The notes beneath the pieces are model-generated. The model worked only from the letters and a program-made list of their open reading frames with translations. It searched no databases and was not told the DNA's origin. This document shows, one piece after another, positions 3,839 to 53,283 of a stretch of DNA of 64,000 bases; positions within the stretch are counted from its first letter, which is position 1, and the number at the start of each line of letters is the position of its first letter. Made by a program: the position numbers and the translations under genes. This DNA comes from Elusimicrobia bacterium GWA2_61_42 (GTDB lineage: Bacteria > Elusimicrobiota > Elusimicrobia > Elusimicrobiales > UBA9959): the NCBI GenBank assembly GCA_001799615.1, contig MGTU01000027.1, positions 27,451 through 91,450 on the forward strand, written 5' to 3'.

Positions 3839-4930
3839 ATGAACACTCAACTGGGAGTCATAGAAGGTTTTTACGGCGAACCGTGGAGCTGGGGCGAGCG
3901 GGCGGACTACGCCGGCTTCCTTAAAAAGCACGGCTTTTCGTTCTATATCTACGCGCCGAAGGCTGACGGCTACATGCGCAAGAAATGGCGCGAGCCTTTC
4001 CCTAAAACCCTCGAGGAAAAGCTGACCAAGCTTTCCTCCCAGTGCCATTCGGCCGGCATAGAGTTCGGGGTGGGCTTCAGCCCTTACGAGATCTATCTTT
4101 CCCCTTTCGACCTGGAAGTCAAAAAGCTGCTGCAGAACCGGGTGGACGCTTTCAACCGCATAGGGGTGGACAAGTTCGGCATACTCATGGACGACATGAA
4201 AGGCGACCTGCCCGGGCTGGCGGAGCGCCAGATAGAGGTGGTCAACTGGATAGCGGCCAGGTCGAAGGCCAAACAGTTCGTTTTCTGCCCCACGTATTAC
4301 TCGCTGGACCCCGTGCTTGAGAAACTTTTCGGCAAAATGCCGGAGGGTTATTTCGAACGGCTGGGGACCGAGCTGGATAAAAAGGTCAGCATGTTCTGGA
4401 CCGGCGAGCAGGTCTGCTCCAAAGCCTACAGCGAGGAGCACCTGCGCTCTACGGCCCAGAAACTCGGCCGCAAACCGCTGCTCTGGGACAATTATCCGGT
4501 CAACGACGGGCCCCGCATGTGCAAATTCCTGCACCTGCGCCCCATGACGGGCCGCCCGCCCGAGATCGGCAACTGGCTGGCGGGCCACGCCGTCAACCCG
4601 ATGAACCAGGCTGCGCTTTCCAAGATAGTCCTGCTGACCCTGCGGGCCGGCTACGAGGCCGGCGCGGCCTACAACCCGGACAAGGCTTTCAGAAAGGCGG
4701 CCGGGATGGTGACCTGCCACGAGATGGCGCTGCAGCTGGAGCGGGACCTCCCGGCTTTCATGGACAAGGGCCTGGACGTCCTGACCGGCGAAGAAAAAGA
4801 GTCCTTGAAGGCGGATTACGCCGTATTCCTGGAATCGCGCGAGAACGATACCGGCAAGGCCGCCCGCGAAGTGATAGACTGGCTGTCGGGGCGCTATAAT
4901 GTAACAAAGGACTTGTTCCTGACCCAATAA
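3839..4930 (+). CDS. glycoside hydrolase family 84 (O-GlcNAcase / beta-N-acetylglucosaminidase-like), no signal peptide
   Basis: GVIEGFYGEPWSW, YIYAPKADGY..KWREPF, catalytic Asp pair context FGILMDDM, FCPTYY, FWTGEQV, LWDNYPVND, VNPMNQAALSKI. These are collinear with the GH84 catalytic domain as recalled from BtGH84/NagJ. Confidence 0.85.
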   Translation: MNTQLGVIEGFYGEPWSWGERADYAGFLKKHGFSFYIYAPKADGYMRKKWREPFPKTLEEKLTKLSSQCHSAGIEFGVGFSPYEIYLSPFDLEVKKLLQNRVDAFNRIGVDKFGILMDDMKGDLPGLAERQIEVVNWIAARSKAKQFVFCPTYYSLDPVLEKLFGKMPEGYFERLGTELDKKVSMFWTGEQVCSKAYSEEHLRSTAQKLGRKPLLWDNYPVNDGPRMCKFLHLRPMTGRPPEIGNWLAGHAVNPMNQAALSKIVLLTLRAGYEAGAAYNPDKAFRKAAGMVTCHEMALQLERDLPAFMDKGLDVLTGEEKESLKADYAVFLESRENDTGKAAREVIDWLSGRYNVTKDLFLTQ

Positions 4931-14087: not shown

Positions 14088-14396
14088 ATGATAGATCTGA
14101 AACCTATTTTTCTCAGAAAAGTTAAAAATATCCTGGCCGGCAACGTGCCGGAATACGACGTTATGGTTTACGGCTCGCGCGCGGACGGCACGGCGAAGAA
14201 ATACTCCTATCTCGATATAGCGGTGATGTCGGACAAGCCCCTGGTGGCCACGCGCCTTGAAAAGCTTTCCGCCGAATTTACCGCGGCCGGTTTTCCTTTC
14301 CGGGTCGAGACCATAGACTGGGCCGCCACGGGCGCCAGTTTCCGCAAAGAGATCAAGAAGACCGGCGTCTTCATCCAAAGCACCCCTAAAAAATAA
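14088..14396 (+). CDS. minimal nucleotidyltransferase (MNT / Pol-beta-fold) domain protein, copy 1
   Basis: 102 aa. VMVYGSRADGTAKKYSYLDIAVM fits hG[GS]-x(9-13)-D-h-[DE]-h, except the first acidic residue is Tyr. Confidence 0.7.
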   Translation: MIDLKPIFLRKVKNILAGNVPEYDVMVYGSRADGTAKKYSYLDIAVMSDKPLVATRLEKLSAEFTAAGFPFRVETIDWAATGASFRKEIKKTGVFIQSTPKK

Positions 14397-14403
14397 CGGC
14401 TCT

Positions 14404-14712
14404 ATGATAGACCTGAAACCTATCTTTTTAAAGAAAGTGAAGGGCATCCTCGCGTCCAACGTGCCTGAATTCGACGTGATGGTCTACGGCGCGCGGGCCG
14501 GCGCCTCGGCCAAGAAGTTCTCGTACCTGGATATCGTGGTGATGTCGGACAAGCCGCTTTCGGCGGCCCGGCTCGAAAAACTGGAAGCCGCCTTCAAGGC
14601 CGCCTCCTTCCCTTTCCGCGTGGAATCCATCTGCTGGGCCGCCACCGGCCCCAGCTTCCGCAAAGAAATAAAAAAAACCGGCGTCCTCATCCAGACCGCA
14701 CCTAAAAAATAA
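14404..14712 (+). CDS. minimal nucleotidyltransferase (MNT) domain protein, copy 2 (tandem paralog)
   Basis: 102 aa, collinear with copy 1 and mostly identical residue by residue. GS becomes GA (VMVYGARAGASAKKFSYLDIVVM). Confidence 0.7.
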   Translation: MIDLKPIFLKKVKGILASNVPEFDVMVYGARAGASAKKFSYLDIVVMSDKPLSAARLEKLEAAFKAASFPFRVESICWAATGPSFRKEIKKTGVLIQTAPKK

Positions 14713-14732
14713 TCAGTCCCGTTTTGCGCTTA

Positions 14733-14865
14733 GGGGCGGCGAGGGGGCCGGGTTAGCAAAACCGTCTCGGAGCCCGACGCTTGCGTAAGCGCGGAGGGCG
14801 AGAGCCGGAAGCGCGCGCACGGTGTGCGCGACGCTGTTTTTGCGTTCCGGCCCCCTTGACGCCCC
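14733..14865 (+). repeat. structured intergenic element, copy A (candidate ncRNA or palindromic repeat family)
   Basis: 19-position closing helix 14733-14751 / 14847-14865. Shares conserved blocks CCGGGTTAGCAAAACCG, CGCTTGCGTAAGCGCGG, CACGGTGTG, TTTTGCGTTCCGG with 53121-53274. Confidence 0.75.
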
Positions 14866-14927
14866 GACCGGCGTCTCGTGGTACGTTTGCGCAAAACGAC
14901 GGCCCGCTTAAATTGTAAAATGTAGGG

Positions 14928-31740: not shown

Positions 31741-31779
31741 AAAAAAAACCCGGGCCGAAAAGCCCGGGTTCTTTTTTTG
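31741..31779. terminator. bidirectional rho-independent terminator (topA / amylase)
   Basis: A8-AACCCGGGC(31747-31755)-CGAAAA-GCCCGGGTT(31762-31770)-CTTTTTTT. Confidence 0.85.
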
Positions 31780-39965: not shown

Positions 39966-39982
39966 CGGCCGCAGGCGCAAAT

Positions 39983-40015
39983 AAAAAGCCCCCGCTGAGA
40001 CGGGGGCTTTTTATT
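39983..40015. terminator. bidirectional rho-independent terminator (icd / macB)
   Basis: AAAAA-GCCCCCG(39988-39994)-CTGAGA-CGGGGGC(40001-40007)-TTTTTATTT. Confidence 0.85.
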
Positions 40016-40033
40016 TGGGCGGGAGCCCAGGGG

Positions 40034-44186: not shown

Positions 44187-44251
44187 AATCCAATTTTACT
44201 ATATTCCCCGCGGCCGCTGCGGTACCCGGTCCGCCGCGCCCGTTCTTAAAT

Positions 44252-44283
44252 AAAAAGCCCGCGCTGCCGGGCGCGGGCTTTTC
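44252..44283. terminator. rho-independent terminator downstream of nrfA (minus strand; A/T runs on both sides)
   Basis: AAAAA-GCCCGCGC(44257-44264)-TGCCGG-GCGCGGGC(44271-44278)-TTTTC. Confidence 0.8.
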
Positions 44284-44300
44284 AGGGGCCTGAGGCGATC

Positions 44301-53087: not shown

Positions 53088-53120
53088 CGCGGCTTTCTCT
53101 CGATCACCAAAGAGGCTACT

Positions 53121-53274
53121 CCAGGCGCAGCGGGGACCGGGTTAGCAAAACCGGGTTGCGTGGAGCGTAGCTCCACTTTCTTGCCCGCCGCTTGCATAAG
53201 CGCGGCGGGCGAATACCGAGTGAGGCCACGGTGTGGCCGAACGCGTTTTGCGTTCCGGTCCCCGCTGCGCCTGG
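53121..53274 (+). repeat. structured intergenic element, copy B (candidate ncRNA or palindromic repeat family)
   Basis: Perfect 20-bp closing helix 53121-53140 / 53255-53274. Same conserved blocks and inner hairpins as 14733-14865, plus an extra GTGGAGC-GTA-GCTCCAC hairpin. Confidence 0.78.
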
Positions 53275-53283
53275 TTTACACAT

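Follow-up and report, generated by a model that had tools for sequence, protein, structure and literature searches.

Copies A and B, two related elements on the + strand of a 64,000-nt stretch of Elusimicrobia bacterium GWA2_61_42 (contig MGTU01000027.1, hereafter the window; DNA from Rifle groundwater metagenomes), are members of an uncatalogued family of structured intergenic interspersed repeats, 130–165 nt long. The conserved portion of the element is an apical three-way junction of 95–120 nt, and the basal stem, P1, is the variable portion. In a covariance-model alignment of 126 copies, 90.8% of helix cells were paired, compared with 68.5% after shuffling and about 40% with slid partners; the covariation score was 0.465, compared with 0.116 and 0.02–0.07, respectively. 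Changes on both sides were seen in 48 of 54 pairs. An earlier note on this DNA had proposed from the two copies that the helices are kept by compensatory change, and the larger alignment bears this out. The fold is real and specific to the + strand, the strand that the note had taken to be the folding one. Non-canonical cells were mostly of types stable on that strand, with G·U exceeding A·C by 152 to 74 (one invariant G·U position left out) and G·A exceeding C·U by 410 to 31, and the reverse strand of strong copies scored more than 120 bits lower.

Anatomy of the two copies and of the family

The core of copy A lies at 14733–14865, where a long P1 stem closes the three-way junction. Copy B, at 53121–53274, has a conserved core in common with it. 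The parts of both copies are as follows.

Copy A, 14720–14729, +: left half of an outer 10-bp complement, CGTTTTGCGC; pairs perfectly with 14889–14898
Copy A, 14733–14751, +: 5′ arm of P1, the copy-specific closing stem, GGGGCGGCGAGGGGGCCGG; partner 14847–14865
Copy A, 14752–14761, +: 5′ side of the neck, with loop GTTA (14752–14755) and P2 strand GCAAAA (14756–14761)
Copy A, 14762–14768 / 14802–14808, +: P3, which encloses P4; assigned on a structure-fixing alignment, covaries
Copy A, 14772–14799, +: P4 hairpin with tandem G·A, UU bulge and GUAA loop; covaries
Copy A, 14810–14835, +: P5 hairpin, CGCGCAC-GGT-GTGCGCG at 14814–14830, plus a bulged A
Copy A, 14838–14843 and 14844–14846, +: 3′ strand of P2, TTTTGC (partner 14756–14761), then loop GTT
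Copy A, 14847–14865, +: 3′ arm of P1, CCGGCCCCCTTGACGCCCC; partner 14733–14751
Copy A, 14862–14881, +: weak version of the 3′ tail module, CCCCGACCGGCGTCTCGTGG
Copy A, 14889–14898, +: right half of the outer 10-bp complement, GCGCAAAACG; pairs perfectly with 14720–14729
Copy B, 53121–53140, +: 5′ arm of P1; 20 Watson-Crick pairs with 53255–53274
Copy B, 53141–53150, +: 5′ side of the neck, GTTA loop and GCAAAA
Copy B, about 53158–53183, +: optional hairpin module, GCGTGGAGC-GTA-GCTCCAC plus TTTCTTG
Copy B, 53184–53210, +: P4 hairpin, fully Watson-Crick, with GC/GC at the position of GA/GA in copy A
Copy B, 53224–53238, +: P5 hairpin, GGCCAC-GGT-GTGGCC
Copy B, 53246–53274, +: 3′ strand of P2, GTT loop and 3′ arm of P1 (53255–53274)

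P1 of copy A comprises 17 Watson-Crick pairs, one G–T pair (14741/14857) and one G × A mismatch (14739/14859). The covariance model matched copy A at 14728–14871 with 151 bits and copy B at 53117–53279 with 74.2 bits (32.7 bits on the reverse strand), and these were its only + strand matches in the 64 kb. Folding energies for the two copies were −111.3 kcal/mol (z −4.7) and −109.5 kcal/mol (z −9.1) relative to shuffled sequence. Both lie far below shuffled energies, and the multi-hairpin architecture described for the two copies in the earlier note is real. Every coordinate and string given there proved correct when rechecked base by base. Aligning the copies also reproduced the blocks said to be shared. 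The closing helix does change both partners at five pairs, and in the CAC-GGT-GTG hairpin two neighbouring pairs exchange G:C and C:G. The 17-mer CCGGGTTAGCAAAACCG, common to both copies, occurs exactly twice in the window, while shuffles produced 0.29 matches even with three mismatches allowed.

Across the family, P1 has a median length of 19–20 bp and is hypervariable yet paired. Conservation is limited to the inner GGGR-CCGG / CCGG-YCCC part, and the stem often has a fixed A·G mismatch (GAC / GGC). The neck is formed by a GUUA / GUU internal loop between P1 and P2 (GCAAAA / UUUUGC). Its 5′ side as seen in copy A, GTTA followed by GCAAAA, was invariant across 113 pattern-selected copies, a result partly forced by the search pattern, and P2 was paired in 98.8% of cells in the covariance-model alignment. 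Beyond the neck, P3 encloses the P4 hairpin and P5 forms a separate branch. In P4, tandem G·A alternates with Watson-Crick pairs, and the hairpin carries a UU bulge and a GUAA or AUA loop (GNRA-like). P5, which is helix 8 of the model alignment (90.4% paired, double changes in seven pairs), ends in a CAC-GGU-GUG tip and contains a bulged A.

An optional 24-nt hairpin, CGUGG-N-CCAC-UUUCUUG, was found at at least four junction positions, always on the element strand. It was considered as an independent mini-repeat and rejected, having no occurrence outside elements. About 15 copies have a 3′ tail, CCCC-GACTGGGCATCTCGCGG (also written CCCC-GACUGGGCAUCUCGCGG), immediately after the 3′ arm and always at the same position, and none of the 112 pattern copies carried it on the mirrored 5′ side. 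Apart from the weak version in copy A, examples occur in sampled loci L076 (924–940) and L091 (6222–6238), and in L044 (3751–3767) the tail occurs by itself, apart from any element. In type B relatives, the P3-P4-P5 junction is retained on a different neck (GGGUAUGGGUUCGG... or GGGUAUGCCUUC...) with a long, near-perfect closing stem; such relatives were seen in L008 (748–892), L103 (3955–4100), L071 (2503–2650) and L041 (2492–2640), often as the dimer partner of a canonical copy.

The outer 10-bp complement that brackets copy A, which the earlier note had counted as part of the structure, does pair perfectly; no such bracket was seen in other family members, and it is not a feature of the family. 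Its sequence is similar to that of the P2 strands of the element (GTTTTGCG / GCAAAAC) with their order reversed, and it may be a remnant of another copy or a P2-like fragment. A 3′ half-copy directly after a full copy was observed in L003, L029, L045 and L051.

Family size and genomic setting

To define the family, a pattern scan for GTTAGCAAAAC-N(70–100)-TTTTGCGTTC was made with one genome per species. It returned at least 111 loci; among the matches listed, all were in Elusimicrobia / Elusimicrobiales metagenome-assembled genomes (MAGs), from 30 assemblies, with several loci per MAG. The 113 pattern copies fell into length classes of 91–96 nt between the anchors and a class about 20 nt longer. 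A sequence profile (nhmmer) gave 141 matches in the 111 loci and the window. The covariance model, trained on 29 copies and searched against the window and 99 loci, gave 126 matches in about 0.9 Mb, of which three were weak reverse-strand echoes of strong matches. Overall, the profile searches recovered about 125–140 copies in 0.92 Mb. Both the window and the extra matches beyond each locus-defining one gave a density of about 1 copy per 30 kb, from which a copy number on the order of 100 per genome is extrapolated. The earlier note knew the element from two copies; it is not a two-copy element bound to their neighbouring genes, and by this extrapolation from the sampled density, each copy would be one of about 100 per genome.

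The note's failure to recognise a named RNA family was upheld by searches against Rfam 15. No match reached the gathering score in the 64-kb window, E-value mode around copy A returned only chance-level matches (E = 0.37–8.3), and about 35 copies in 18 loci gave zero element matches, the only hit being an unrelated tRNA. Nothing relevant was found in the literature on Elusimicrobia repeats or on the 11-mer GTTAGCAAAAC, and there were no matches in viral contigs. Within the sampling made here, only GC-rich groundwater Elusimicrobiales carry the family.

Contigs start or stop inside copies at L088 (4498–4568), L107 (7038–7102), L076 (3–55) and L115 (a 597-nt contig ending in copy A); the repeat therefore breaks metagenome assemblies. 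In L076, a G run and an N gap also abut a copy near 4410. Other repeat families co-occur with the copies. The motif GACCGCGGACTGTACCCCGAATTCTGTCC lies beside copies in L014, L094 and L101; because these loci are orthologous, it may be a conserved flank rather than a separate repeat family.

Gene context was determined with a simple codon-usage caller, checked on the window. Copies lay mostly at gene 3′ ends, at a median distance of 14–66 nt from neighbouring genes. Between co-directional genes, 34 copies were sense and 48 antisense, so that copies are oriented at random to their flanking genes or with a slight antisense bias. Convergent gaps held 28 copies and divergent gaps six (6/116). An apparent orientation effect, in which the 3′ end of the element faced gene 3′ ends (76 vs 40), reduced to this preference for convergent over divergent gaps and was discarded. 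Of the gene 3′ ends that faced a copy, 110 of 138 (~80%) had no intervening terminator; read-through transcription, sense or antisense, is therefore expected across most copies. The copies themselves do not look like intrinsic terminators: there is no T run after the 3′ arm in copy A, and just TTT in copy B. Intrinsic terminators of the ordinary bidirectional type, built from an A tract, a GC stem and a T tract, are common in these genomes and clearly distinct from P1; the window has examples at 39975–40020, 31741–31776 and 44251–44284.

Wobble pairs in P1 were compared between contexts. Antisense-context copies had 34 G·U and 14 A·C, and sense-context copies 13 and 12, respectively. The asymmetry tracks the element and not the host genes, and its persistence in antisense contexts argues against selection on host mRNA. 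The specific intergenic RNA implied by the earlier note is not supported in that form, as copies occur in either orientation relative to genes and their strand asymmetry does not follow host transcription. We lean towards the + strand acting as single-stranded DNA rather than RNA.

Several features of the flanks were polar. All 16 neighbouring pairs of copies were arranged head-to-head around an AT-rich spacer of 17–75 nt, mostly 40–60 nt (for example L008 564–886, L015 2760–3089, L080 9–324, L089 6965–7282 and L093 4626–4939, with 11 more loci). Spacers of different dimers are partly homologous, as with TAATAAAGTGA just before one 5′ arm. The 5′ flanks were somewhat more AT-rich than the mirrored 3′ flanks and had higher sigma-70-like motif scores (3.26 vs 1.96, p = 0.008), a modest score being reached in 24 of 111 copies and 16 of 111 mirrored controls. 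No promoter motif at a fixed distance was found, and upstream flanks were unrelated between copies. A canonical terminator lay downstream of 11 of 111 copies and 4 of 111 mirrored controls, which was not significant. These polar features keep a reading as expressed RNA alive without establishing it.

Among protein families neighbouring the copies, only histidine kinases, ABC transporters, epimerases and similar families recurred, with no recurrent transposase. No open reading frame (ORF) with HUH and Y motifs (Y1/RAYT-type) was found in 922 kb centred on the copies. Immediately upstream of copy A are two tandem paralogous genes for 102-aa nucleotidyltransferases (MNT / Pol-beta-like; 14088–14396 and 14404–14712), for which no HEPN-type partner was seen in the stretch examined.

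Evolution of stems and cores

Many copies occupy orthologous positions in different species, with flanks 70–90% identical, and presence/absence differences between species were also seen. Near-identical strains of the window had the same arrangement as the window, and so supplied no closely related empty site from which the insertion boundaries could be read. In 30 orthologous pairs, the P1 arms were related where the flanks were close (identities of, for example, 0.92, 0.84 and 0.82). Median core identity was 0.74, equal to that of random cross-genome pairs, and the core was often of a different subtype. Copy B followed this pattern when compared with its orthologous copy in L108, having related arms (identity 0.79) and a different core subtype. 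In 10 of the 30 pairs the core was inverted relative to the flanks.

Comparison of cores within and between genomes gave the complementary picture. Cores at least 97% identical made up 22 of 256 same-genome pairs and 21 of 6182 cross-genome pairs, and such cores carried arms at background identity; only a few bases outside CCGG, identity was already at background. One rare core with an insertion was found on unrelated arms in the closely related MAGs of L060 and L071. The simplest reading of these comparisons is that the outer stem would be inherited with its locus, drifting under a pairing constraint, and that the CCGG-to-CCGG core has probably been overwritten or flipped repeatedly from other copies in the same genome, giving concerted evolution of the core. 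This overwriting could be gene conversion or a cassette-like exchange.

Duplication of a whole unit also occurs. In MAG STC_50, a head-to-head dimer of 340–375 nt is present at at least five loci with 86–92% identity. In each composite, a spacer separates a canonical copy from a diverged partner in inverted orientation:

L110, 5893–6270: STC_50 composite
L002, 5769–6142: STC_50 composite
L021, 3165–3511: STC_50 composite
L098, 2548–2889: STC_50 composite
L026, 3120–3439: STC_50 composite

Candidate explanations and known systems

We tentatively favour the reading that the family is a resident selfish repeat of the REP/REPIN/ERIC kind, although we put it at slightly below even odds. Under this reading, selection would act on the folded + strand of the core. 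A trans-acting, structure-specific protein would probably recognise the folded core and promote its copying among the resident, locus-specific stems, with single-stranded DNA favoured over RNA as the acting form. As a by-product, transcripts crossing a copy would gain a very stable hairpin at the end of an operon or inside it. Several points weigh against it. No mobilising enzyme was found near the copies, either among the neighbouring families or in the Y1/HUH scan of 922 kb. The GNRA-like loop, the tandem sheared G·A and the G·U/U·U/U·G neck form a classic set of RNA motifs, and the slightly promoter-like 5′ flank, the head-to-head dimers around an AT-rich spacer and the 3′ tail are features that transcription units could also show. 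Known REPINs keep a constant stem around a variable loop, the reverse of the arrangement here, and gene conversion is something we infer rather than have observed. Orientation showed no association with local GC skew, which here tracks gene strand and is so a weak proxy for replication.

The same RNA-typical motifs and strong covariation would be expected if the copies were multi-copy, independently transcribed small RNAs, with a promoter 5′ of P1 and a product of about 130–165 nt, sometimes bearing the 3′ tail. The junction would then bind a protein or act catalytically, and head-to-head dimers would share a bidirectional promoter. We consider this possible but somewhat unlikely. It accounts for a fold whose strand is set by the element and not by host genes, for the AT-rich, higher-scoring 5′ flanks, for the uniform arrangement of pairs around an AT-rich spacer, and for a tail module that is solely 3′. 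However, only 24 of 111 copies (16 of 111 mirrored controls) reached a modest promoter score and no promoter motif had a fixed position, the upstream flanks are unrelated, downstream terminators were not significantly enriched, and inversion or replacement of the core at orthologous sites is unexpected for genes; we also know of no precedent for about 100 independent small-RNA genes per genome. A role within host mRNA, by analogy with what has been proposed for REP, ERIC or Correia elements as RNA, appears improbable. Here the stem, in a 3′ untranslated region or between cistrons, would adjust how stable the flanking cistrons are, either as a barrier to 3′ exonucleases or as a site of RNase III cleavage. 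The frequent lack of a terminator between gene and copy, from which co-transcription is expected, the short distances to genes, the excess of convergent over divergent gaps and the whole-element fold of about −110 kcal/mol all agree with such a role. Orientation, however, is random or slightly antisense, the G·U excess in antisense copies is the opposite of what selection within mRNA predicts, about 20% of copies lie beyond a terminator, and a simple stability hairpin leaves the conserved three-way junction unexplained.

Two further DNA-based readings fared worse. The earlier note had named a miniature inverted-repeat transposable element (MITE) as the alternative to an RNA, to be recognised by copies that are numerous and lie in both orientations, by terminal inverted repeats identical among them, and by target-site duplications. 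Many copies in both orientations were indeed found; the terminal repeats and the duplications were not. As a classical MITE, the element would be a deletion derivative of a DDE-type insertion sequence, with transposase binding its conserved terminal inverted repeats and leaving target-site duplications. Short, non-coding, intergenic copies, presence/absence differences between species, and partial and nested copies fit this description, but it is largely refuted and very improbable. Variation is greatest in the terminal 13–20 bp, where identity stays at background even between copies whose cores match at 97% or more, and all four Watson-Crick pair types are common at variable P1 positions. Direct-repeat lengths at the P1 boundaries equalled a flank-swapped null (112 copies), giving no target-site duplication, and no transposase family recurs near copies. 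CCGG was also considered as a target duplication and rejected, since its CAGG...CCTG and CTGG...CCAG variants are inverted, not direct, repeats. Insertion into pre-existing palindromes was likewise rejected: solo hairpins in 0.92 Mb were ordinary terminators, none P1-like, and at empty orthologous sites both arms and core are missing. We give equally little credence to a DNA recombination site, whether a folded, integron attC-like site or an inverton flipped by a site-specific recombinase. The long imperfect inverted repeat with strand-specific unpaired bases, the position of copy A after small MNT-type genes, a kind often found in cassettes, and the inversion of the core between its arms at a third of orthologous sites (10/30) would suit it. 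Yet copies are dispersed among housekeeping genes (lysS-lolC, mtaB) with no cassette array, and no inverted R″/R′ core-site pair (RYYYAAC / GTTRRRY) is present, GTTAGCA and GTTCCGG having the same orientation. The arms vary, unlike recombinase-bound inverted repeats, the internal hairpins covary, pointing to a folded single strand, and copies are rare in the divergent gaps that contain promoters.

A bolder proposal, which we regard as unlikely, takes one of two forms. Either the CCGG-bounded core would be a new self-propagating cassette, copied and flipped between stems via a folded single-stranded intermediate and having no terminal repeats, target duplications or linked transposase, or the approximately 100 copies per genome would be independently expressed structured RNAs, catalytic or protein-scaffolding, some of them in divergent head-to-head pairs. 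If the core moves as a cassette or is an expressed RNA, this would represent a new propagation mechanism or a new class of RNA; if the element is REP-like, it would widen the known range of structures recognised by structure-specific mobilisation. The family brings a large structured element with covariation support to a phylum whose non-coding repertoire is almost undescribed, and it accounts for many contig breaks in Elusimicrobia MAG assemblies. Its organisation is unusual for a bacterial repeat, combining a constant structured core with a locus-specific stem and, probably, concerted evolution of the core only; the core is also invertible at fixed sites, and dimers are always head-to-head.

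Comparison with known systems showed the closest parallels with the REP/BIME/REPIN-RAYT elements. Like these, the family has an estimated 100 or so intergenic copies per genome, mostly at gene 3′ ends and in either orientation, with no target duplications, with inverted doublets (all 16 pairs) and with compensated stems. The hairpin is single-stranded with strand-specific mismatches, and copies are more alike within a genome than between species. In contrast to REPINs, which keep the REP stems and vary the loop, a junction of about 100 nt is conserved and the stem is variable. There is no conserved 20–35-nt palindrome with a head tetranucleotide, nor a GTAG-type head, the 922 kb centred on copies yielded no RAYT-like ORF, and recent copying is limited to the core. 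ERIC (IRU) and pneumococcal BOX elements are likewise imperfect intergenic palindromes of about 130 nt, in either orientation to transcription, and have size variants formed by internal insertions at defined sites, comparable to the optional 24-nt hairpin and the modular necks. They share no sequence similarity with the present family, however, and are conserved over their full length, ends included, whereas the Elusimicrobia elements have a multi-branched covarying core and hypervariable ends.

The Correia elements of Neisseria (CREE / NEMIS) are also multi-copy intergenic hairpins of 100–150 nt that are co-transcribed with neighbouring genes, as most copies here are expected to be, with a stem of RNase III-substrate length. 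Correia elements have conserved 26-bp terminal inverted repeats, TA target duplications and an IHF site, none of which is present in the Elusimicrobia family. With the structured RNAs of Rfam, such as HEARO/omega RNAs and self-cleaving ribozymes, the family shares a covarying multi-helix fold, conserved junction and loop nucleotides and many copies; it differs in having no Rfam 15 match, no linked ORF and a random orientation relative to genes. The family is one of bacterial interspersed palindromic repeats, with several features that the known families lack.

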